Positions 26,452 to 35,623 of a DNA stretch of 49,802 nucleotides are shown in pieces (within the stretch, counting starts at the first letter, position 1; each line of letters opens with the position of its first letter). A program made the position numbers and the translations under genes. This DNA is from an uncultured Gammaproteobacteria bacterium (GTDB lineage Bacteria > Patescibacteriota > Patescibacteriia > Magasanikbacterales > UBA922), in NCBI GenBank assembly GCA_964522405.1, contig CAZFTR010000008.1:1-49802 (forward strand). Direction: 5' to 3'. The notes beneath the pieces were generated by a model. That model saw only the letters and a program-made list of their open reading frames with translations. It was not told the DNA's origin and did not search any database.

Positions 26452-29400
26452 ATGAAGAAAAGTTCTACACAAAAAGAGAATATTTTATGGTTCAAAGACA
26501 TCTCTATTGGAGATGTATCTTTGGTTGGAGGAAAAAATGCATCTCTTGGAGAGATGTATTCCAAATTGACCAAAAAAGGAATTGCAGTACCAAACGGTTT
26601 TGCTATGACTGCAAGTGCTTATTGGTCTTTTTTTGATGCGGCTGGACTGAAGAAAAAAATTAAAACAGAATTAAAAGGATTGGATATTACTGATATTCAA
26701 AATCTTAGAAAAAAAGCTACCAAAATACGAAAGATGATAATGTCAGCAAAACTTCCAGAAGATATCAAAAAAGATATACTTAGTTCTTATAAAAAATTAT
26801 CAAGTATTAAAAATGCACCTGTAGCAGTTCGCTCGAGTGCAACAGCAGAAGATTTGCCAGAAGCCAGCTTTGCCGGACAACAGGAGAGTTATCTAAGTGT
26901 TCGTGGAGACGCAGCCTTGCTTGAGTCAGTTCAGAAATGCATAGCCTCACTTTTTACAGAAAGAGCCTTGTCATACCGAGAAAAACGCGGCTACAATCAT
27001 TTAGAGATTGCCCTGTCAGTAACAGTTCAACAAATGGTTGGTTCAGACAACGCAGTTAGTGGGGTTTTGTTTACAGTAGACACAGAGTCAGGATTTGATG
27101 GTGTGGTGCTGGTAAATGCTTCATATGGATTAGGTGAATATGTTGTAAAAGGAAAAGTAATTCCAGATCAGTATTTTGTTTTCAAAGAAGGTCTAAGAAA
27201 AGGTAAAAAATCTGTAATTAGTAAAATTCTTGGCACCAAACATATTAAGTTGGTTTCAGGAAAAATCAGAGGAACCAAACAAGTAAAAGTTTCAAAAACT
27301 GCACAAAATAAGTTTTGTCTTACAGAAAAAGAAATACTGCAACTTGCAAATTGGGGCATGATTATAGAAGAGCACTACGGAAAAGCACAAGATATAGAGT
27401 GGGCCAAGGATGCCAAATCAGGAAAATTATATATAGTTCAATCACGTCCAGAAACAGTAAAAGCTCGAGAAAACGCAGCAGTTATAGAAACATATAAACT
27501 CAAGACCAAAGGAACACTACTAGCTTCCGGAGTCGCAGTAGGTCAGAAGATCGGTGCTGGAAATGTTCGTATTATAGATTCACCAAAACAAATGAAACTT
27601 TTCAAAAAAGGTGAAGTTTTGGTAACTAGAATTACAGATCCAGACTGGGAACCGATCATGCGTATAGCGTCAGCCATAGTTACAGAGCAGGGTGGAAAAA
27701 CATCACACGCAGCCATAGTTTCAAGAGAAATGGGGGTTCCCTGTGTGGTGGGTGTTCGAGAGGCTCGAGCAAAGCTCAAAACAACCAAATCAGTAACAGT
27801 TAGTTGCGCAGAAGGAGAAGAAGGAAGAATCTATAAAGGTGTTCTGCCTTTTGAGCTCAAAAAAACAAATATCAAGAATGTCCCAAAGACAAAAACCCAG
27901 ATAATGATGAATATTGGAGATCCGAACAATGCCTTTCCATTGTCATTTTTGCCAAACGATGGAGTTGGTCTAGCAAGAGAAGAGTTTATTTTTAGTAATT
28001 TTATCAGAATTCATCCATTGGCTTTGGTTCATTATACTAAATTGAAGGATAAAAAAGCCAAGAAAAAAATAGCTGATCTTACCAGAGGATACAAGAAAAA
28101 ACCGGATTATTGTGTGGATAAACTTGCCGAGGGAATTGGTCGTATAGCTACAGCATTTTACCCAAAGGAAGTGGTGGTTAGACTTAGTGATTTTAAAACC
28201 AATGAATATTCTTCACTGATTGGTGGAGCAGAATTTGAACCAAAGGAAGCCAATCCTATGCTTGGTTGGCGAGGAGCAAGTAGATATTATTCCAAGCAGT
28301 ATAAACCAGCTTTTAAGCTTGAGTGTGAAGCATTGAAAAAAGCAAGAGATGAGTGGGGACTAAGCAATATTACAGTCATGGTGCCATTTTGTAGAACACC
28401 GGAAGAAGGCGAAAAAGTTCTTAAAACCATGTCAGATTTTGGATTGAAAAAAGGCGAGAATAATCTTAGAGTTTATGTAATGTGTGAAATTCCCTCAAAT
28501 GTGGTCCTGGCAGATGAATATGCCCAGGTTTTTGATGGGTTTAGCATAGGAACCAATGATTTGACCCAATTGACTCTGGGGGTAGATCGAGACTCAGCAG
28601 AAATCAGTCATATTTATGATCATAATAGTAAAGCAGTAAAAGACTTGGTGGCCGGAGTTATCAAAACAGCACATAAATACGGCAAAAAAGTTGGAATATG
28701 TGGTCAGGCTCCAAGTGACAGTCCTGAGTTTGCAGAGTTTCTATTGCAGCAGGGAATAGATAGTATATCACTTAATCCAGATACTGTAGTTTCAGCCCGA
28801 AAACATATTGCCTATGTTGAGAAAACACTTGGAAAAACCGGAAAGAAAACCAATAAGAAATTTGTCAGTCTGGTAGCGGTGATTGGTGCGATGGGTCTGG
28901 CGCTTGTTGGTCTTGGTGGAGGTTGTGCAAATATTATCGATCCTGGATTTGACGCAGCACCACAGGATTATCAAACAATAACGCCGGCAGAGATTCGCGA
29001 CAAAGCAGTTCAAAAAGCAGTAAAAGAAAAAGATCAGGAATTTGAAGCCAGACATTCAAAACTCAAGATCAGAAGTTTTGCTTCTTTTGAAATGGAATAT
29101 CCAAGTATGTGGAGTGTGGAGCAGTGGAATGGCGGGGTTACCCTCTATTCAGAAGATGAAAGTGAATATTTAAGCATCTTTGATCAATTAGTTAATCATC
29201 CAGTTAAGGAAGGAGATAAGGAAGTTTATAAGGTTGGAGAGATCTTGGCAAAGAAGTATACTGCACAAAATACAAAAAAGCAGAGTGTTATGATAATTGA
29301 AATAGAATTGCAAGATGGAAATATTTTAGAAATAAATTCAAATAGTGAGAGATGGGAAGAAATAGTGTCAACTCTAGAAATTACAGGTTTAGCAGGTGAT

Positions 29401-29562
29401 CAGAAACCGGTATTGAATCACTGGGATGTTCGAGAAGGGAGAATATGTTCAAATATGCTGGTTTATGCTCGAGAAGACAAAGAAGTAGGTGAGTGTATCG
29501 TATATGAGTCACCATGTGAAATACCAGAGGGTTGGTATGTTTGTGATGCAGATGATTTGTAG
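26452..29562 (+). CDS. ppsA: Phosphoenolpyruvate synthase with ~230-aa C-terminal TM/extracytoplasmic extension
   Basis: VGGKNASLGEM, VAVRSSATAEDLP.ASFAGQQ, DIEWA, GGKTSHAAIVSRE (phospho-His), NPMLGWRGA, FSIGTNDLTQL, GICGQAPSD. Confidence 0.96.
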   Translation: MKKSSTQKENILWFKDISIGDVSLVGGKNASLGEMYSKLTKKGIAVPNGFAMTASAYWSFFDAAGLKKKIKTELKGLDITDIQNLRKKATKIRKMIMSAKLPEDIKKDILSSYKKLSSIKNAPVAVRSSATAEDLPEASFAGQQESYLSVRGDAALLESVQKCIASLFTERALSYREKRGYNHLEIALSVTVQQMVGSDNAVSGVLFTVDTESGFDGVVLVNASYGLGEYVVKGKVIPDQYFVFKEGLRKGKKSVISKILGTKHIKLVSGKIRGTKQVKVSKTAQNKFCLTEKEILQLANWGMIIEEHYGKAQDIEWAKDAKSGKLYIVQSRPETVKARENAAVIETYKLKTKGTLLASGVAVGQKIGAGNVRIIDSPKQMKLFKKGEVLVTRITDPDWEPIMRIASAIVTEQGGKTSHAAIVSREMGVPCVVGVREARAKLKTTKSVTVSCAEGEEGRIYKGVLPFELKKTNIKNVPKTKTQIMMNIGDPNNAFPLSFLPNDGVGLAREEFIFSNFIRIHPLALVHYTKLKDKKAKKKIADLTRGYKKKPDYCVDKLAEGIGRIATAFYPKEVVVRLSDFKTNEYSSLIGGAEFEPKEANPMLGWRGASRYYSKQYKPAFKLECEALKKARDEWGLSNITVMVPFCRTPEEGEKVLKTMSDFGLKKGENNLRVYVMCEIPSNVVLADEYAQVFDGFSIGTNDLTQLTLGVDRDSAEISHIYDHNSKAVKDLVAGVIKTAHKYGKKVGICGQAPSDSPEFAEFLLQQGIDSISLNPDTVVSARKHIAYVEKTLGKTGKKTNKKFVSLVAVIGAMGLALVGLGGGCANIIDPGFDAAPQDYQTITPAEIRDKAVQKAVKEKDQEFEARHSKLKIRSFASFEMEYPSMWSVEQWNGGVTLYSEDESEYLSIFDQLVNHPVKEGDKEVYKVGEILAKKYTAQNTKKQSVMIIEIELQDGNILEINSNSERWEEIVSTLEITGLAGDQKPVLNHWDVREGRICSNMLVYAREDKEVGECIVYESPCEIPEGWYVCDADDL

Positions 29563-29617
29563 ATAGCTTTGGGTAAAAAGAATTAAATTCGCCACAACAA
29601 GCGGATTTTTTTAATTA

Positions 29618-29646
29618 TTGACTTTTTTAATAAAATATGATAAATT
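29618..29646 (+). promoter_or_regulatory. Sigma70 promoter of GC-rich unit 1
   Basis: TTGACT-17-TAAATT with extended -10 TG; GC content rises right after the predicted start site. Confidence 0.7.
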
Positions 29647-29687
29647 TTTGATCAAACCGCGTCACACCCATGGGAGGGACAAGATCG

Positions 29688-29891
29688 ATGGGGAAGTTTG
29701 ATTACAGCAAGGCCAAGGTGGACGGCAAGTGCCCGTACTGCCACGGCAAGAATCGCCACACCAAGAACCAGCGCAACATGTGCCGGGACGGTACCTTCAA
29801 CCGTCCCAGCAAGAAGTCCGGCGGCGTCAAGGGAGCTGGTCAGCAGGACCACAAGAAGAAGCGCAAGAAGAAGACCTCGCGCGGCAAGTAG
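29688..29891 (+). CDS. GC-rich 67-aa basic protein with CxxC-x5-H-x7-C putative Zn site and KKKRKKK tail
   Basis: SD GGGAGGG at 29672-29678; 59/67 codons end in G/C; all 16 Lys codons are AAG; tandem TAG TAG stop. Confidence 0.75.
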   Translation: MGKFDYSKAKVDGKCPYCHGKNRHTKNQRNMCRDGTFNRPSKKSGGVKGAGQQDHKKKRKKKTSRGK

Positions 29892-29942
29892 TAGGCACTA
29901 CGCCGCAACTTCGAGCGCCGGGTGGGTGTGACAACAGGGAGA

Positions 29943-30010
29943 TCCTCGATCCGGTCGCAATGGCGCGGCCGGTTCGGGGAAGGAAAATACAGCTTATTGG
30001 GCTGTTTTTT
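29943..30010 (+). terminator. 3' GC hairpin plus intrinsic terminator of GC-rich unit 1
   Basis: TCCTCGAT-CCGGTCGC-AATGGC-GCGGCCGG-TTCGGGGA hairpin; ACAGCTT-ATT-GGGCTGT-TTTTT. Confidence 0.7.
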
Positions 30011-30017
30011 ATTTTTC

Positions 30018-30072
30018 TGTCATCCCGAGCGAAATGACCTAGTGAAACTAGGGAATGTAGCCGAGGGATCCC
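30018..30072. repeat. REP-like palindromic element (TGTCATCCCGAGCG...CGAGGGATCCC type) with inner hairpin
   Basis: Ends match the GTCATCCCGAGC..CGAGGGATC family of short intergenic repeats; inner CCTAGT-GAA-ACTAGG. Confidence 0.55.
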
Positions 30073-30110
30073 TGTCTACGCAGGTAGTTGTTTAAATTGA
30101 TCTTTCAGTC

Positions 30111-30139
30111 TTGACAAAAACCTCCAAATTTAGTATCAT
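30111..30139 (+). promoter_or_regulatory. Strong sigma70 promoter of small basic protein
   Basis: TTGACA-17-TATCAT. Confidence 0.7.
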
Positions 30140-30171
30140 ATTCACACTATATAAAAAATAATATTGAATAT

Positions 30172-30354
30172 ATGGGAATGAGAAAAAGAGTTCGCACTAA
30201 GTGGAAAGCTGACCGAAAAGAGCAGATCCGCAAGATTAGTGCGCAGCGCCTGAAAAAGGCCACCAAAGCAGCTGCAAAAGCAACAGCCAAACCAGCAGCT
30301 AAATCTACAGCTTCAAAAGCTGAAAAAAAGGAAGAGGTTAAGCAGGCTGCATAA
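30172..30354 (+). CDS. Small Lys/Arg/Ala-rich basic protein (60 aa), possibly nucleic-acid binding
   Basis: Own promoter; MGMRKRVRTKWKADRK..KKATKAAAKATAKPAAK; host-like codon use. Confidence 0.7.
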   Translation: MGMRKRVRTKWKADRKEQIRKISAQRLKKATKAAAKATAKPAAKSTASKAEKKEEVKQAA

Positions 30355-30427
30355 TATTGTGAGATATTTACGTTTGTGCTATAATGTTCAAGCATTTCAA
30401 CTGGCTGTTAAATACTAACAGCTTTAC

Positions 30428-30501
30428 GGACCGGTAGTTCAATTGGTTAGAGCACCGCCCTGTCACGGCGGAAGTTGCGAGTTCGAGTCTCGTCCGGTCC
30501 G
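30428..30501 (+). tRNA. tRNA-Asp(GTC), CCA not encoded
   Basis: Cloverleaf: GGACCGG/CCGGTCC acceptor, CCGCC-CTGTCAC-GGCGG anticodon arm, GCGAG-TTCGAGT-CTCGT T arm; upstream TG-C-TATAAT promoter. Confidence 0.97.
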
Positions 30502-30702
30502 CTTAATTAAAAAATTCGGCTTTAGCCGGATTTTTTAATTAAGTCTGGATCAGAGACGGGACTCGAACTGGGGGTGGTAGGGGGCGCAGCCCCCTACGTG
30601 CCGAGGAAAGTTCACGAAAACCCGAAGGTTTTCGTGGGAGGCCGAAGGCCGACGTGAGAGTCCTGGCCTTTGGCAAGGTTCTCGTCCGGTCCGCTTAATT
30701 AA
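30480..30702. repeat. tRNA-linked palindromic element: inverted copy of tRNA 3' half, three GC hairpins, then 23-bp direct copy of tRNA 3' end
   Basis: 30525-30569 is about the reverse complement of 30480-30520; TCTCGTCCGGTCCGCTTAATTAA at 30488-30510 and 30680-30702. Confidence 0.8.
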
Positions 30703-30797
30703 CTTGGTTAAATTAGCCAAGTTTTTTGTTGGGAAAATAGGGCGACATGACTCACCCAAACCTTCCGTGTTATACTATAGACAATTATTTTAATTTT

Positions 30798-31634
30798 ATG
30801 TCAACATCAGTTTTTTTACTTGTAATTGCAGCAACCATAACTCACGCTCTCTGGAATTTTGCAGCAAAAAAAGTCTCCGGGGATATAGCAGTGATATGGA
30901 TTGGTTTGATGATAGCTGTCATTGTTTTTTTTCCACTTCTACTCTTTCTACCTACTGAACAATTTCATTTTACAGAAGTCCTTCCTTATATTCTTGCATC
31001 TGGCATATTACATACATTTTATTTTCTTGCTTTATCCAAATCGTATAAGTACGGCGAAATCTCAACGGTATACCCACTTGCCAGAGGTCTGGGAATATCC
31101 GGTACCTTCTTAGGAGCATATATTTTATTACAAGAACAAACATCACTATTTGGCTTTATAGGAATATTACTAATTTGTTTTGGAGTATTCGCTATTGGAA
31201 AGGATAGTCTAAACAATAAAAAAGGGGTCAGGTTTGCATTCGTTGTCGGGGTGACTATTTCAGGGTATTCCATTATAAATAAAATAGCGGTTGGTATATC
31301 ACATCCCCTTTTCTATTTACTGAGTTATACATTTATTTATACGCTTTTTTTAGCTCCTTATGTTATCTTGAAAGAAAAAATGAAATTAAAGAAAGCATGG
31401 AAAAAATATAAAAAAGAATCCATTGTTATTGGTATTGGGGCTGTTGGCACATCGCTTATGATATTATTTTCCTTTCAGCTAGCAAATGTCAGTTATGTTG
31501 TAGCTTTAAGAGAATTTGCAGTTATATTTGGAGCTATCCTTGGCTTCATATTTCTAAAAGAACGCCTATCTCTGGGGAAAATCATTGCCATACTTCTGAT
31601 AATAGTAGGAGCTATTCTGCTTAAATTTGCATAA
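30798..31634 (+). CDS. EamA/DMT family transporter
   Basis: HA.WN..AK, Y..GE.S.VYPLARG, S...ALRE..VIFG.ILG..FLKE; about 10 TM segments. Confidence 0.92.
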   Translation: MSTSVFLLVIAATITHALWNFAAKKVSGDIAVIWIGLMIAVIVFFPLLLFLPTEQFHFTEVLPYILASGILHTFYFLALSKSYKYGEISTVYPLARGLGISGTFLGAYILLQEQTSLFGFIGILLICFGVFAIGKDSLNNKKGVRFAFVVGVTISGYSIINKIAVGISHPLFYLLSYTFIYTLFLAPYVILKEKMKLKKAWKKYKKESIVIGIGAVGTSLMILFSFQLANVSYVVALREFAVIFGAILGFIFLKERLSLGKIIAILLIIVGAILLKFA

Positions 31635-31719
31635 TTTCACGTTAAAAAAATTCGAATCACATTCTGTCGCTCCAACAGACCTGACTTCGCTTATTTTGGC
31701 GGAGTTTTTTATTGCAAAT

Positions 31720-31785
31720 AAAAAATACCCAATCTCCTATATGATTCTAAACACATCAGAGTCATATTTCGTTTGGGTATTTTTT
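31720..31785. terminator. Long hairpin/terminator between convergent EamA gene and GC-rich unit 2
   Basis: AAAAAATACCCAA...TTGGGTATTTTTT outer stem; ATATGATTCT/AGAGTCATAT inner stem. Confidence 0.65.
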
Positions 31786-31929
31786 TAATTCGGAACGCGG
31801 TGACCTTATGAATAGTCATCCCTGTAGGCTCGCTCTTTCGCGCCCTCACGTTCCTGTCTCACAACTATATCTCGACCAGTTGCCAGCCGCTTGGCGGTAC
31901 TTCTCGGGTATCCTCTTGATTAGAGGGAG

Positions 31930-32130
31930 CTACTCCTCCCAGCGCCCCGTCTTCTGCCGCCTCACCTGCCGGTCGAGGAAGTCCCCATACTGGGGGCTGT
32001 ATTTCGGCATCCCGTGGGGGTACTTGGGGTCCAGCTTGGTATAGGGGTCGCCACCGAGGTTGCGCGTGCTCCTCTCGGCATTCGTCCACTCAGGGGAGTA
32101 GGGGTCGTATTTTCGCCCACTAAAAGACAT
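31930..32130 (-). CDS. GC-rich 66-aa Pro/Tyr-rich hypothetical protein (MSFSGRKYDPYSPEW...)
   Basis: SD GGAGGT at 32140-32135; strongly G/C-ending codons; own promoter. Confidence 0.65.
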   Translation of the reverse strand: MSFSGRKYDPYSPEWTNAERSTRNLGGDPYTKLDPKYPHGMPKYSPQYGDFLDRQVRRQKTGRWEE

Positions 32131-32162
32131 CTTTACCTCCATAGGTATCCATTGACGCCCTT

Positions 32163-32191
32163 AGGATAACACTTTATTCCAGGGGTGTCAA
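32163..32191 (-). promoter_or_regulatory. Sigma70 promoter of GC-rich unit 2, within an inverted repeat (32150-32193)
   Basis: TTGACA-17-TATCCT with extended TG; CATTGACGCCC...GGGTGTCAATG. Confidence 0.7.
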
Positions 32192-32297
32192 TGCATGATC
32201 ACAAAGGATCTGAATTAAACTTTTTTGTTATTAATCTAAGATGTGTGAGTATATTTTACTAAAAAAAGTTCCCTCACCACCCATACTTAGCTCAGAA

Positions 32298-32318
32298 TTC
32301 GAGTCTCGTCCGGTCCGC
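32298..32318 (+). repeat. 21-bp copy of tRNA-Asp 3' end (att-like site)
   Basis: TTCGAGTCTCGTCCGGTCCGC identical to 30482-30502. Confidence 0.85.
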
Positions 32319-32393
32319 AAATGAGACTGCATTCATTTTACTTTTTACGCAAAGTCTTGTACACTTACAGTTGTAATTAATAAACCAACATAT

Positions 32394-32855
32394 ATGGGAA
32401 ACACACCTATGAGCCCTGAGCAATTACGCGCAATGGGTATAGACACTACAGGGGGTACTGAACATAATTCACCCAACTCACTATTTGCGACTTATCTTGA
32501 AGAATTCAAAGGGTTGAACGACACTCAAATACAAGAAGTGCTTACAAAAGCAAAAGGAGGTGAGCCAACACCACAGTCAATGTTAGCTGCAGCTGTAGAT
32601 TTAGGATATGTAAAAGACGCATCAGAATTTGACCTGAAACATTTCGATGCACTACACGAAAAATCAACAGATTATGGGACATATCTTGTGGAAACAGGAC
32701 TTTGCACACAAGAACAAATCGATGAAGTACTCGAAAGTTTGGGGGAAGAGGCAACACCAACTTCTATTGGACAAGCCCTTGTTGATGAAAAAATTCTCCG
32801 TCGAGATGTAAAAGATGTACTGCTTGCAGGATTTGCCGCTCAAAAAATTAACTAA
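32394..32855 (+). CDS. Small acidic protein with degenerate MshEN-like motifs
   Basis: YGTYLVETGLCTQEQIDEVL and IGQALVDEKILRRDV resemble (R)LGxxLxxxGxxxxxxLxxxL. Confidence 0.65.
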   Translation: MGNTPMSPEQLRAMGIDTTGGTEHNSPNSLFATYLEEFKGLNDTQIQEVLTKAKGGEPTPQSMLAAAVDLGYVKDASEFDLKHFDALHEKSTDYGTYLVETGLCTQEQIDEVLESLGEEATPTSIGQALVDEKILRRDVKDVLLAGFAAQKIN

Positions 32856-32923
32856 ATCCACCCTCATCTTGTTCAATTCCTGTAAGTGACAAAAAGTTCG
32901 AATCACTTTCCATTGTTCTTACA

Positions 32924-32951
32924 AAAAACCTCGCTGATTAGCGAGGTTTTT
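32924..32951. terminator. Bidirectional terminator between convergent genes
   Basis: AAAAACCTCGCT-GATT-AGCGAGGTTTTT. Confidence 0.85.
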
Positions 32952-32969
32952 AAAAATTTGATTTCCTTT

Positions 32970-33245
32970 TTACTTTCTAAGCACGCCACGCTCCTTTGGT
33001 GGTTCAAGAGTTTTCTCCGACTCTGGATTTTCATTTATTACTACCTTCCCATCAATAATTCTATACTCCGGCCATTTCTGCTCAAATTCCTCTCTGCTCA
33101 TATTGCCAAAGGCAACATCAGTTGCATCATTAGCTCTTTTAGTGTCATCTATCATTGTTTCGGTAAGCTCTGCCTTTCTCCCTCCTGTGAGAGGTCTTTG
33201 AGCGGGGTCTTCATATCTATCACTTGGTGATCTTTTTACAGCCAT
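32970..33245 (-). CDS. Hypothetical protein (91 aa)
   Basis: AT-rich leader, host-like codon use, ends at the terminator. Confidence 0.65.
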   Translation of the reverse strand: MAVKRSPSDRYEDPAQRPLTGGRKAELTETMIDDTKRANDATDVAFGNMSREEFEQKWPEYRIIDGKVVINENPESEKTLEPPKERGVLRK

Positions 33246-33454
33246 ATATGTATGTTAATTTATTTTATTATTTAGACGAACTATACATTATATTTATTTT
33301 TTTGTAAAATGCTTGTGGGTAAATATTAAACAAAATGAGATGTATAGTTAAAAATCTTTTTTTGAAATATTTTATTTAAAGCTAGTTCATAAATACCTCA
33401 TTTGATTCTATTACATTAAAAAAAGTTCAAATTATGTTCATATGATTCCCACAA

Positions 33455-33488
33455 ATTTAAAAACAACCTATTTGGGTTGTTTTTAAAT
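33455..33488. terminator. Perfect 14-bp inverted repeat (terminator-like)
   Basis: ATTTAAAAACAACC-TATTTG-GGTTGTTTTTAAAT. Confidence 0.65.
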
Positions 33489-33598
33489 CCTCAATTGTTT
33501 CCTAAATTTTAGAAAAAAATAGTCGGGTTGTCGGGCGCAGTTCTCCAATTCTACGCCCGATTTCCCTTGCTTGCCAAGCTCCTTTCTCGGCATTAGTG

Positions 33599-34156
33599 TC
33601 AGTCGGTCGGCTCCGTCGCCGCCCGGGCCGTGTTCTCCATCAACTCCAGCATGCGCCGAAGCATGAGCTCGATGCGCCGCGTGGCCTTGGAGGCTTCCAT
33701 GGTCTCCTCGTCCATGCCTACCTTGAGCAGATCAGCGGAGTCGTAGACCGCCGCCGCGACGTAGAGAAAGCCGTAGATCGGGAGGATCACCGGCAGGCTC
33801 AGGGGGGCACTGAAGGCAGCCAAAGTCACAAGGGCGTAGATCCCGGAGACGAAACTGGTGAACATGGTCTTGGTGATGACCATGGCGCCTGTCTTGTGTC
33901 TCTTCGGAAGTGCCGCGTTGGTGATGACGAACCAGGCCAGGCCCGCGATCTGGGCCGCGATGGCCACAGCGCCAACGATCAGTTGGGTGGTGTCACTGCC
34001 GTACTTGGCTGCGATCACCGATCCCGGAAGCACGATCAGGCTCTGGAGCAGAACCTGCGCGTGCTTCTTGGTGTTCTCGTCGAGGGCGATGATGTCATCT
34101 TCGGTCGCCTTGGAGTACAGCGAAGCGAAGATGAGCTTCTTGAGCAGTTTTTCCAT
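33599..34156 (-). CDS. GC-rich 185-aa multi-pass (~4 TM) membrane protein of unknown function
   Basis: SD AAGGAGGG at 34172-34165, 8 nt before ATG 34156; G/C-ending codons; hydrophobic segments and helical C-tail. Confidence 0.8.
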   Translation of the reverse strand: MEKLLKKLIFASLYSKATEDDIIALDENTKKHAQVLLQSLIVLPGSVIAAKYGSDTTQLIVGAVAIAAQIAGLAWFVITNAALPKRHKTGAMVITKTMFTSFVSGIYALVTLAAFSAPLSLPVILPIYGFLYVAAAVYDSADLLKVGMDEETMEASKATRRIELMLRRMLELMENTARAATEPTD

Positions 34157-34204
34157 TGAAATCGCCCTCCTTGAGCGAGATTCGGGGTTGATTAGTTGAA
34201 CTGA

Positions 34205-34257
34205 ATTCATAGATGTTTTCAACACTTGAGCTGCAAGTCCTAGAAACATCTATGAAT
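34205..34257 (-). promoter_or_regulatory. Long 5'UTR hairpin of GC-rich unit 3
   Basis: ATTCATAGATGTTT/AAACATCTATGAAT 14-bp perfect stem enclosing ACTTG-AGCTG-CAAGT. Confidence 0.65.
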
Positions 34258-34297
34258 CAAAAAAGCAAGGGATAGTGATTAAAGAGCAGAATGAAGA

Positions 34298-34326
34298 AAT
34301 CTATCATAAAAAAGTTATATTGTCAA
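34298..34326 (-). promoter_or_regulatory. Sigma70 promoter of GC-rich unit 3
   Basis: TTGACA-17-TAGATT with extended TG. Confidence 0.7.
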
Positions 34327-34376
34327 GATGATCAAATAATTAATTGCCTTTAATAAGCCTTTTTCCACTTTAAAAT

Positions 34377-34402
34377 AAAAAAGAGCCTTTCAGCTCTTTT
34401 TT
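34377..34402 (-). terminator. Intrinsic terminator after 99-aa gene
   Basis: AAAAAAGAGC-CTTTCA-GCTCTTTTTT. Confidence 0.75.
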
Positions 34403-34419
34403 AAATCTTTCTATACAAA

Positions 34420-34719
34420 CTAATTATATTTCTCATCATCCCAATTCTCAGAATCTGCCAGAAGTTCAGCAGCATAGGCCTTAGCTTCAGCCTCTTGATT
34501 TGCTTCAAAACTTCTGGTAGTTGGAACATAACTTAGATAATCAAAACCGTCATCTGCTGCTGGCTCACCATGAGCTGACACTTCATATTTGCCACCATCC
34601 AAATCAATTTTTACAAATACAGAACCTTCTGCTCCCCGGTCTTTCCAGGTTTGGGGCGCGTCTTTTTTTTCTGAAGTAGAAATTTCAATCCTTTGTCCTT
34701 CTCTTGTTGGGTCTGCCAT
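34420..34719 (-). CDS. Acidic hypothetical protein (99 aa)
   Basis: Promoter TTGACC-16-TATAAT (34777-34750), terminator and host-like codons. Confidence 0.7.
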   Translation of the reverse strand: MADPTREGQRIEISTSEKKDAPQTWKDRGAEGSVFVKIDLDGGKYEVSAHGEPAADDGFDYLSYVPTTRSFEANQEAEAKAYAAELLADSENWDDEKYN

Positions 34720-34783
34720 ATTTTTTATATTTAATAATTAACTATTCTAATTATACAATATAGCTGAAAAAGGTCAATTATAG

Positions 34784-35248
34784 TTATCTATAGCCAAGTT
34801 TGATCTTTAAATCCTTCAACCTAGCATAAAATCCAGCAGTGTGAATAGAATTTAAACCTAGCTTCTCATGATCATAGTGATGCATCCATTCATGGACCAG
34901 AGTATCAAAAAAAGTTTTCGAAGCTAGAATTTGACCTCTTACTGCAGTTCTATTATTTATATAAATATATTTGGATTGCGGACGATAATATCCATATTGC
35001 TTGAAAGCAACCCGGTTTTGGCGTTTGTTATGATATTGATTTTTGTCAGAAATTTTAAGTTTAACAATTCCAATTCTTGCTAAATCACCAAGCTCATCAA
35101 GAAGTTCGGTTCCAATAGATTGCCTGGATTCAAAACCAAGTTTTGAGCCAAGCAGAGTAGAGGATAGCTCAAGAGCCCTCTCAGAAATAGGAAATTTAAC
35201 TTTCATTATTCTGTTGCTCCTGTTGTAGTTTAATTTCTTAAAAAACAT
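34784..35248 (-). CDS. SprT-like/zincin HExxH metalloprotein
   Basis: TLVHEWMHHYD...HTAGFY motif; start could be 35248 or 35206. Confidence 0.75.
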   Translation of the reverse strand: MFFKKLNYNRSNRIMKVKFPISERALELSSTLLGSKLGFESRQSIGTELLDELGDLARIGIVKLKISDKNQYHNKRQNRVAFKQYGYYRPQSKYIYINNRTAVRGQILASKTFFDTLVHEWMHHYDHEKLGLNSIHTAGFYARLKDLKIKLGYR

Positions 35249-35287
35249 AGACCTCCATTATACCATCTTTTTTTTAATTAAGGCGAG

Positions 35288-35525
35288 CAATGCGATTGCC
35301 GAATTTCACTATGAGGACCTTTTTTTATTTTTCATGATTTGTATTAGTTGTATGTGAGTCTGTAGTATAAAGACAGATGAGACAATCCGCAGTCCCCTTG
35401 TTGCTGCTGAAAGCAGAGCAACAAGAGAGACGAGGACGGCGAAGCTGTTTTTATACTACAGACTCACCCTAGACTCTGATCATGAAAAATAAAAAAAGGT
35501 CCTCATAGTGTCCGGCAAAGCATTG
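35288..35525. repeat. ~240-bp nested palindrome
   Basis: 32-bp perfect IR 35307-35338/35479-35510; 23-bp IR 35354-35376/35445-35467 (one mismatch); inner CTTGTTGCT/AGCAACAAG. Confidence 0.9.
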
Positions 35526-35588
35526 GGAGCGAAGGAGGGGGCGCTCCCGCTTCAAACCAGACACTACGAAGACCTTTTGAATTTTTAA
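35491..35588 (-). ncRNA. Candidate ~100-nt hairpin sRNA with anti-SD loop (CCCCCUCCUU)
   Basis: Perfect promoter upstream; 22-bp basal stem with 3 G-U pairs valid only on the minus strand; GGGAGCG/CGCUCCC apical stem; ends in U7. Confidence 0.7.
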
Positions 35589-35594
35589 TATATA

Positions 35595-35623
35595 ATTATA
35601 GCAGATATTAAGGCTTTTGTCAA
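35595..35623 (-). promoter_or_regulatory. Consensus sigma70 promoter of candidate sRNA
   Basis: TTGACA-17-TATAAT with extended -10 TG. Confidence 0.85.

Follow-up and report, generated by a model that had tools for sequence, protein, structure and literature searches.

GC-rich, Shine-Dalgarno-led accessory genes and a conserved RNA with an anti-Shine-Dalgarno loop in an AT-rich genome of the Patescibacteria

Introduction

Contig CAZFTR010000008.1 of assembly GCA_964522405.1 (contig C8 below) belongs to an uncultured bacterium that was deposited as a gammaproteobacterium and is placed by GTDB in the family UBA922 of the Magasanikbacterales, among the Patescibacteriota of the candidate phyla radiation (CPR). 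The entire contig of 49,802 nucleotides was analysed and is referred to here as the window. Between positions 29,618 and 35,623 it carries three short single-gene units that are rich in guanine and cytosine (GC) and preceded by Shine-Dalgarno (SD) sequences, in a genome that is otherwise AT-rich and SD-poor. Close to them lies a candidate small RNA (sRNA) displaying the sequence CCUCCUU. The locus raises the question of where such units come from, which ribosomes read them, and whether the RNA belongs to them. A preliminary description, made from the sequence, proposed either mRNAs tuned for translation by a host after RNA transfer or toxin-like mRNAs kept silent by folding and by the anti-SD RNA. 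It took plain horizontal transfer as the null model.

The null model turned out to be the best fit, given homologues that are patchy and non-syntenic, DNA that is extra compared to relatives, repeats of a tRNA end, and the grouping of unit 3 with copies from GC-richer contigs. We consider it probable, with considerable room for doubt, that about 77 accessory genes (about 6% of the DNA) were acquired horizontally from a GC-richer gene pool by a cell whose native genes are SD-less, and that the sRNA is a separate core RNA.

Results

A class of GC-rich, SD-led genes

The genome (G000) consists of 1,218,384 bases on 34 contigs of a metagenome-type assembly and has a GC content of 36.7%. GC content within the window reached 59.5-60.5% at 29.7-30.0 kb (unit 1), 58.5-62.5% at 31.8-32.1 kb (unit 2) and 57-65% at 33.5-34.1 kb (unit 3), with 22-43% in the flanking segments. 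The fraction of GC at third codon positions (GC3) was 0.85, 0.83 and 0.85 in units 1, 2 and 3, respectively, compared to 0.24 in native genes, when taken from the longest open reading frame (ORF) of units 1 and 2 and from the SD-led start of unit 3. The sharp GC richness and G- or C-ending codons of the preliminary description were therefore confirmed. Its strong SD sequences were read directly ahead of all three ORFs (GGGAGGG, GGAGGT and AAGGAGGG), and a promoter scan placed the claimed TTGAC(A/T)-17-TAnnnT promoter, with TG before the -10 element, ahead of each unit.

The expectation that further units of this type would occur in the genome was fully borne out, as about 77 ORFs were alike. 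The bulk of 1,262 greedy ORFs had GC3 values of 0.2-0.3, while 101 ORFs, a few of which overlap rRNA on contigs C20, C21 and C24, combined a GC fraction of at least 0.5 with a GC3 of at least 0.62. The stricter GC3 limit of 0.70 was reached by 77 ORFs with a median length of 136 aa, and 159 segments of 150 nt, or 6.3% of the genome, had at least 55% GC. Pooled values for the three codon positions (GC1/GC2/GC3) were 0.60/0.44/0.83 in the GC-rich class versus 0.48/0.35/0.24 in native genes.

The two classes also differed in how their starts are marked. Counting an SD core at any start within the first 30 codons, and taking internal positions as the control, we found one at 58 of 76 GC-rich ORFs (76%; control 9%) versus 59 of 927 native ORFs (6%; control 4%), in agreement with the claim of an SD-poor native genome. 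A strict promoter motif was present within 250 nt upstream of 33 of 75 units versus 62 of 914 native ORFs, and in 16 of the 33 promoter-bearing units GC content stepped up 0-22 nt past the -10 element. The 3' untranslated regions (UTRs) of the class were GC-rich (median 89 nt) and structured, with a mean fold z score of -2.26 and z below -2 in 40 of 72. The flanks of 54 units with a GC3 of at least 0.75 showed a recurring anatomy, in which an AT-rich promoter of the CTTGACAAAA type is followed by a leader containing GGAGG, the ORF and a 3'UTR, all three GC-rich and the last often C-rich, and finally by an AT-rich hairpin and T run.

The 20 largest GC-rich ORFs encode two cysteine-rich Dicty_CTDC-repeat proteins, a CAP/Dickkopf-like protein, an aspartokinase with ACT domains, two GCS2-like ligases, ParB and an adjacent pyrE-pyrF pair, and eight have no Pfam match. 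The class is diverse in content, as an all-against-all comparison of the GC-rich proteins gave only four alike pairs. One was a duplicated rRNA-overlapping ORF on C20/C21, and one of the remaining three was an adjacent tandem pair.

Because the assembly is of the metagenome type and broken into 34 contigs, GC-rich pieces of another organism might have been joined into an AT-rich contig, and the preliminary description had named chimeric assembly as a way in which its reading could fail. The window was contained in metagenome runs from seawater or marine samples of four studies. Contigs from runs X3, X4, X6 and X7, which belong to two other studies, matched the window with no differences and bridged the GC junctions; for unit 1 they cover the two junctions (29519-30034), for unit 2 the unit and its flanks (30831-32323), and for unit 3 each end (33359-33686 and 34008-34500). 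In runs X6 and X7 some bins had no contig, and these gaps carry no weight here. Since independent contigs span the junctions of all units, and the same anatomy occurs at dozens of sites on other contigs, the GC islets are no assembly artefact, and we give a chimera or contamination practically no weight. The CPR assignment of the genome also stands, because a gene similar to phosphoenolpyruvate synthase at 26452-29562 was 61-66% identical to genes of metagenome-assembled genomes labelled Candidatus Magasanikbacteria or Parcubacteria.

Distribution of the units and insertion beside tRNA-Asp

Homologues of unit 1 were found in two of 106 family genomes (G047 and G065; 41-42% identity), both as GC-rich, SD-led islets with a TTGACA promoter of their own, and no word-sharing candidate was found in a large protein set. 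Unit 2 had no homologue in the 106 family genomes and no word-sharing candidate among 5.8 billion proteins. Unit 3 was present in 4 of 24 family genomes and, besides G000, in 1 of 400 phylum genomes; its family comprised 51 representatives at E ≤ 1e-3 among the 1.84 billion searched, with a best identity of 58%. For pyrF, homologues occurred in 7 of 100 family genomes and were GC-rich in G084 and G103, AT-rich in G063 and G090. No synteny or shared neighbours were found for the unit homologues, and a search of the ESM Atlas by way of homologue P0121 gave scores of at most 0.80, which is noise level.

The clearest single result on origin came from unit 3, which shared 52% identity with a copy on a metagenome contig of 45 kb and 55% GC and 49% with a copy on a contig of 47% GC, compared to only 21-27% for five copies in other genomes of the family or phylum (GC3 0.29-0.58). 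The copy on the 55% GC contig has a GC3 of 0.84, an SD, and a TTGACA-17-TATAAT promoter lying in an AT-rich dip. Because of this difference in identity, unit 3 is, judging by its sequence, a member of a subfamily that lives in GC-richer genomes. Such donor-like grouping was seen for unit 3; the best identity for pyrF in the large protein search was 51-54%, and the scan of genome contigs found no relative of it. A single alignment scan found no relative of unit 3 on viral contigs, and a phage origin of the units is not supported by that scan.

In relatives with conserved gene order, PPDK, tRNA-Asp, in some cases p154, and rplT-rpmI-infC lie within about 1.7-3.5 kb, and in G000 the same interval measures 6.1 kb. 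The extra content is made up of units 1-3, an EamA gene and three AT-rich orphans. The tRNA-Asp gene (GTC; 30428-30502, plus strand) is oriented opposite to the copies in the syntenic relatives, and its 3' end, in a pattern absent from the preliminary description, is repeated at 30671-30694 and 32295-32318 and, inverted, at 30555-30569. The copy at 32295-32318 (plus strand; 96% identity to the 24-nt reference copy) is an att-like remnant beside unit 2. Between two copies of the tRNA-Asp 3' end, each with TTAATTAA, lies a GC-rich, non-coding stretch of about 150 nt (30545-30702) that matches no Rfam family; it holds the inverted, T-arm-like copy and ends in the repeat 30671-30694, followed by TTAATTAA. 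An integrated element has probably left this stretch behind. Since extra genes and tRNA-end repeats occur together here, the PPDK-rplT interval is best described as a recombination hot spot. Genome-wide, 12 of the 77 units lay within 1 kb of a tRNA gene versus 5.5 expected (P about 0.01).

No integrase or transposase was found among the ORFs of the interval with Pfam, PHROGs or NCBIfam, as had been stated, and PF00589 matched only on contigs C1 and C10. At a second site, the unit 1 homologue of G047 (locus L157) adjoins a gene whose counterpart in G000 is C6:53379-53985. That counterpart neighbours a different GC-rich unit (C6:54171-54581) and a tRNA-Glu gene (region C6:53379-55016), and the cassette at this C6 hot spot seems to vary from genus to genus.

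SD use in relatives and the ribosomal anti-SD

In four relatives the 3' end of the 16S rRNA was GGATCACCTCCTTT, so that the canonical anti-SD is kept and the cell's own ribosomes could read the SDs of the units. The 16S rRNA gene of G000 itself is split over two contig ends (C20:235-1100 and C21:8-1211), with its 3' end unassembled; it matches the model in pieces (positions 9-873, 875-902 and 934-1228), which hints at insertions. Relative G012 had no GC islet in 100 kb, and over the same length SD cores stood at the starts of 2 of 90 ORFs (2.2%), equal to the internal control. In some genera islets were common: relative G002 had five GC-rich segments in 45 kb, one of them 2.6 kb at 65% GC, and an SD core at 10 of 64 ORFs, five of these with a GC fraction of at least 0.54. 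By these counts the absence of SD use is a trait of the lineage, and SD-led genes are exceptional and arrive with GC-rich DNA.

A conserved sRNA with an anti-SD loop

The sRNA candidate of the preliminary description proved to be a well-supported structured RNA. It is encoded on the minus strand at 35484-35588 (model R1) behind a TTGACA-17-TATAAT promoter with TG (35595-35623, minus strand; 12 of 12 matches in the scan) and is predicted to fold into a single hairpin of about 100 nt (-54.8 kcal/mol), followed by a U run. Its apical 10-nt loop, CCCCCUCCUU at 35541-35532, contains CCUCCUU, the exact core of the 16S anti-SD. The locus lies directly 3' of infC-rpmI-rplT, a position kept in seven of nine loci, and most of the aligned relatives also show a promoter and a U run. 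In an alignment from 10 genera, 16 of 34 base pairs had compensatory changes and the 10-nt loop was invariant.

BLAST detected the sRNA in 35 of 100 family genomes, and with a covariance model it was present in 97 of 107 family genomes (53 of 56 genera), mostly as a single copy and sometimes in tandem. Two genomes of another family from the order were sampled, and both have the RNA with CCUCCUU kept. A weak match at class level had different stems and the same CCUCCUU loop. Rfam, including RsaE and 6C, gave no match to the sRNA at gathering score or up to E = 5; at the latter limit no family matched the units, the GC-rich fragment beside the tRNA or the repeat R2 (described below) either.

Complements of 7-mers of the loop stood at the SD position of 17 GC-rich ORFs versus 7 native ORFs. 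A link between the presence of the sRNA and GC islets was ruled out, as the RNA occurs in G012 and G063 just as in G002, G084 and G103. Since it is found in genomes in which no islets were seen, the sRNA is a core RNA and no unit-specific partner. Its most likely action, judging from the loop, would be pairing with SD-like, G-rich sequences; alternatively, it may be a mimic of the 16S tail that is recognised by a tail-binding protein. In a separate observation, a hairpin of the form CCCCCTCCTT-ttc-AAGGAGGGGG was found at C3:53659-53700 (locus L149, 1460-1500, minus strand), immediately ahead of the gene for a Pyr_redox_2 oxidoreductase. In it, a 10-mer identical to the sRNA loop pairs in cis with the SD of that gene.

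The RNA component (4.5S RNA) of the signal recognition particle (SRP) was ruled out as the identity of the sRNA. The SRP RNA loop is a GNRA tetraloop, and here the loop has 10 nt; RF00169 matched in none of six genomes. Searches of G000 for the SRP protein Ffh with PF02978, PF00448 and TIGR00959 were likewise negative. PF00448 had no match over the cut-off in 31 genomes (G000 and 30 relatives from the order), and SRP searches matched in 12-14 of 14 control genomes, a result that comes from a single method. If true, the absence of SRP parts across the order would be remarkable. A search of a limited collection of papers found none on GC-rich, SD-led units in Patescibacteria, on a CPR sRNA with an anti-SD loop or on loss of the SRP in the CPR.

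Anatomy of the three units

Unit 1 is on the plus strand. A TTGACT-17-TAAATT promoter with TG before the -10 element (29618-29646; 9 of 12 matches in the scan) precedes a 5'UTR that would run from the predicted transcription start site (TSS) to the ORF (29653-29687; fold z +0.5) and has its SD, GGGAGGG, at 29672-29678. The ORF (29688-29891) encodes a putative small basic protein of 67 aa with the motif CPYC...C..G, and the GC-rich, structured 3'UTR (29892-30017; z -2.9) contains a terminator hairpin at 29989-30005 with a T run. Unit 2 is on the minus strand, with a TTGACA-17-TATCCT promoter and TG before the -10 element (32163-32191), a predicted TSS near 32156, the SD GGAGGT at 32140-32135 and an orphan ORF of 66 aa (31930-32130). 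Its GC-rich 3'UTR (31716-31929; z -2.1 for 31780-31929) ends in a hairpin with 13-nt arms and a 40-nt loop, followed by a T run. Unit 3, also on the minus strand, has a TTGACA-17-TAGATT promoter with TG before the -10 element (34298-34326) and a 5'UTR (34157-34291, from the predicted TSS; z -2.5) that is AT-rich, forms a long hairpin and carries the SD at 34172-34165. Its ORF (33599-34156) encodes a predicted multi-pass membrane protein of 185 aa from a small conserved family with the motifs N..KH, G.AWF.ITFGAIP and YD..D.LK.GLDE. The 3'UTR (33505-33598; z -4.2) is GC-rich and structured, and the GC hairpin of this unit has its T run about 15 nt beyond it.

Two claims about these ends held in part. 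The terminator-like hairpin of unit 1 passed a simple scan, but those of units 2 and 3 failed it. The UTRs had been called highly structured, which was correct for the three 3'UTRs and for the 5'UTR of unit 3 but not for the 5'UTRs of units 1 and 2, the latter with a z of +0.6. The proteins of units 1 and 2 were hydrophilic by sequence, and neither the three unit proteins nor their neighbours p153, p91, p99 and p154 had a significant match in Pfam, PHROGs or NCBIfam.

Units 1 and 2 might instead be fragments of dead genes, or RNAs that are structured and do not code for protein. Structured RNA classically shows up as GC-rich islets in AT-rich genomes, the 3' parts are significantly structured, GC-rich DNA stays open in many frames, and no search returned a homologue of unit 2. 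However, both sequences have a three-base periodicity in the SD-led frame (GC3 0.83-0.85 compared to 0.45-0.54 for GC1 and GC2), the motif CPYC...QR..C..G.F of unit 1 is kept in its homologues from two other genera, each with an SD and ATG, and Rfam gave no match. We therefore regard a non-coding nature as very unlikely. On its codon periodicity and SD, unit 2 is a putative protein-coding gene.

The perfect 10-bp pairing between 5'UTR and 3'UTR, reported for two units at about 30 nt after the stop, was recovered in unit 1 (29661-29670 with 29923-29932, 32 nt past the stop) and unit 3 (34272-34263 with 33572-33563, 27 nt past the stop). Unit 2 had no perfect 10-bp pairing of its ends (5 nt). 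Genome-wide, exact UTR complements of at least 10 nt were mildly enriched, in 9 of 75 units versus 3.2% of 600 mismatched 5'/3' pairs, and part of them were AT-rich, terminator-like words. Duplex energies did not differ between matched and mismatched UTR pairs (mean z -0.08, p = 0.52), and end pairing as a class-wide feature was rejected on this measure despite the mild enrichment of exact matches.

Other features

A structured repeat element of 122 nt, R2, lies beside the sRNA gene at 35349-35470 (plus strand). It has 11 copies in G000 and none in 40 relatives. The other copies are at C11:4667-4788, C5:24373-24494, C1:41219-41340, C5:64728-64849, C9:7788-7909, C1:66879-67000, C1:15477-15598, C2:53034-53155, C5:19044-19163 and C2:121186-121334. 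The core, composed of AUGAGACAAUCCGCAG, an inner hairpin and CGAGGACGGCGAAG, is conserved, and the outer stem is different in each copy and still paired (41 pairs, 21 changed on both sides). R2 may be a small mobile element with hairpins as its landing sites, or a ribozyme-like RNA. On either side of the copy in the window stands one arm of a perfect 32-nt inverted repeat (35307-35338 and 35479-35510). Because one arm is the 3' half of the sRNA with its terminator, the end of the sRNA has been duplicated in inverted orientation around R2.

The most GC-rich genes of the genome (GC3 0.89-0.94) encode large, cysteine-rich CTDC proteins of the Dictyostelium type, and the CAP/Dickkopf-like gene has a GC3 of 0.68; the CTDC-repeat and CAP genes are at C2:13440-16538, C2:3054-5393 and C1:75364-76629. 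Both domain types are known mostly from eukaryotes. Genes for TrmB-like regulators at C17:5903-6274, C3:55625-55993 and C18:5825-6544 are similar to those on the GC-rich contig L131 and adjoin the GC-rich units C17:5382-5720 and C3:54669-55423.

Discussion

The horizontal acquisition that we favour would have proceeded by the arrival of each unit as a whole small transcription unit, or by deletions that trimmed a larger piece down to one. The units would have settled in intergenic hot spots, often beside tRNA genes, and kept the codon usage, SD site and GC-rich 3' hairpins of the donor type. They may be read from promoters of the sigma-70 type (TTGACA/TAnnnT). Since promoters of this kind form AT-rich dips in the GC-rich relatives too, GC richness looks confined to the transcript. 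Translation of the SD-led mRNAs by the cell's own ribosomes could take place through the retained 16S anti-SD. The sRNA loop may pair with SD-like, G-rich sequences and could damp translation of the acquired genes, because SD-like sequences in this genome sit mostly on them. The source pool probably consists of other Patescibacteria-like lineages or their mobile elements.

Several observations weigh against this account. No mobility gene was found among the ORFs searched in the interval, no close donor came out of the genome, metagenome and viral scans (best identities 58% for unit 3 and 51-54% for pyrF), and no match of flanks was found for any unit homologue. The preliminary description had looked to close homologues with matching flanks as the sign of a recent transfer; with best identities of 58% and 52% for unit 3, a transfer would be neither recent nor open to tracing. 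At only 38-44% identity, distant homologues from other AT-rich genera share the GC richness (unit 1 in G047 and G065, pyrF in G084 and G103), which implies a GC-rich state that either lasts or is acquired again and again. GC3 (0.83) exceeds what GC1 (0.60) would predict, and lysine stays common, with a K/(K+R) ratio of 0.43-0.54 in the classes of highest GC3; regression lines for the amelioration of high-GC genes lead one to expect the opposite GC1/GC3 pattern. The abrupt rise of GC at the predicted TSS is unexpected for random insertion. Finally, G012 has the sRNA yet 100 kb without SD use, and damping of acquired genes therefore cannot be the sole role of the RNA. The simplest reconciliation of these conflicting signs is an old, diverse, GC-rich accessory pool that was sampled repeatedly.

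Selection for GC-rich transcripts is the live rival to acquisition. The genes would be accessory genes of the lineage's own, made GC-rich in place along the transcript by selection at the RNA level or by a mutation bias linked to transcription. Selection might act on RNA stability or folding if the cell's RNases prefer AU-rich RNA, and an SD would be needed where a GC-rich, folded leader cannot start like the AT-rich native leaders. The GC step just past the -10 element, the GC-rich and structured 3'UTRs, the lead of GC3 over GC1 with lysine kept in AAG codons, and the GC richness of distant homologues in other AT-rich genera are all consistent with this, as is the small size of the unit 1 and unit 3 families, whose members came only from such organisms or from unnamed contigs. 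Against it, unit 3 groups with the copies on GC-richer contigs and apart from those of the family, the distribution is patchy and non-syntenic, and the units are extra compared to syntenic relatives in an interval with tRNA-end repeats. The ribosomal protein genes beside the units are AT-rich, so high expression alone gives no GC richness, and we know of no bacterial process that confines GC enrichment to the transcript. We consider enrichment in place rather unlikely on balance.

The proposal of harmful or toxin-like mRNAs held silent by 5'/3' pairing, in the manner of hok mRNA, together with the anti-SD sRNA fared less well. The RNA does exist, its loop is complementary to the AAGGAGG-type SDs of 17 GC-rich ORFs, two units have perfect end pairings within a mild genome-wide enrichment of exact complements, and in the native leader on C3 the SD is paired in cis with the same 10-mer. 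However, the RNA is a core RNA not dedicated to the units and occurs where no islets were seen, the duplex energies of matched and mismatched UTRs are alike, and the class holds plain metabolic and other genes (pyrE, pyrF, aspartokinase, ParB). The hydrophilic proteins of units 1 and 2 are unlike type I toxins, no antisense gene overlaps the units, and we judge silencing distinctly improbable. Export of mRNAs made by the CPR cell for SD-dependent, high-GC translation in a host is more improbable still, to the point that we would hardly expect it. The one argument in its favour is the mismatch in codon and SD style between the units and the native genes, and transfer from GC-richer lineages explains this more simply. 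The four relatives keep GGATCACCTCCTTT, so that the cell's own ribosomes can use SDs, and several units encode enzymes useful to the reduced CPR cell itself (pyrE/pyrF).

A further possibility is that the sRNA acts as a translational gatekeeper, which would compete with ribosomes for the SDs of incoming SD-led genes (here about 6% of the genome) in an order whose ribosomes keep the anti-SD but whose native genes make no use of SDs. We hold this to be unlikely. If it were true, acquired genes would be kept at low or conditional expression, as a translation-level counterpart of xenogeneic silencing. In a bolder variant of the same idea, GC-rich, SD-led and hairpin-ended units would be the exchange format of an accessory gene pool shared among these bacteria.

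The units and the sRNA can be set beside several known systems. In hok/sok-type systems a toxin mRNA is inert through 5'-3' fold-back, the toxin is small and hydrophobic, and the antisense RNA overlaps. Units 1 and 3 resemble them in the 10-bp pairing of the 5'UTR with a site about 30 nt after the stop, but no small hydrophobic toxin or overlapping antisense RNA was found, and the pairing is absent in unit 2. Our promoter and terminator scan gave no antisense promoter/terminator pair over the units. A type I toxin-antitoxin system was ruled out on these grounds, namely hydrophilic peptides, no antisense pair, end pairing in two of three units and no class-wide energy signal. Integron gene cassettes are likewise single-gene, mobile-looking and foreign in composition and have a structured 3' element. 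Unlike cassettes, the units carry promoters of their own, lie scattered instead of in arrays and have no attC-like 3' sequence in common. No integron integrase lies nearby, and this identity was also rejected, with only two tyrosine recombinase matches, on C1 and C10.

Transfer among Patescibacteria is reported to be frequent and to account for up to 13% of genome length (PMC12455944). The units resemble the transferred islets described there in their atypical GC content and codons, patchy occurrence, position next to tRNA genes with tRNA-end repeats, and accessory or orphan content with gap-filling enzymes. They differ from those islets (PMC12455944) in being mostly single small transcription units and not multi-gene islands with integrases, in a GC richness that ends at promoter and terminator, in having no traceable donor, and in the contrast of SD-led acquired genes with SD-less native initiation. 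The sRNA is similar to RsaE/RoxS of Firmicutes (PMC6158497, PMC5419742) and to the actinobacterial 6C/B11 RNA (PMC12395582) in being a small RNA with a promoter and terminator of its own, whose hairpin loop presents unpaired C-rich sequence complementary to SDs. It differs from both in having no sequence or Rfam relation to them, in being a single long hairpin, and in a loop that is the exact anti-SD core CCUCCUU and more than a C run; the native genes of its lineage make no use of SDs, and its site after infC-rpmI-rplT is fixed. In SD-independent translation of the Bacteroidetes type, the anti-SD is reported to be retained but sequestered (PMC7797042). The present case is similar to that account in its SD-less native genes and the canonical 16S anti-SD of its relatives, and unlike it in having a subset of genes with strong SDs and a trans-encoded RNA that copies the anti-SD.

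Compositional islets and sRNAs with C-rich loops are thus known kinds, and the combination found here is a variation on both. If the units are ordinary old transfers and the sRNA acts in some other way, the finding would shrink to a tidy description of compositional islets. If acquisition is the right account, the genome would offer an unusually clean example of a cell with two gene classes, distinct in composition, codons and initiation, with about 77 SD-led, GC-rich and mostly single-gene units among more than 900 SD-less, AT-rich ORFs. Expression of foreign genes in a reduced symbiont, the persistence of foreign composition and the use of SDs as a mark of acquisition would then become testable. 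The sRNA is a new and, from its covariation and conservation, well-supported structured RNA that is near-universal in the family, with the anti-SD as its only invariant single-stranded feature, and it provides an entry point to the control of translation in bacteria that nobody can yet grow alone.

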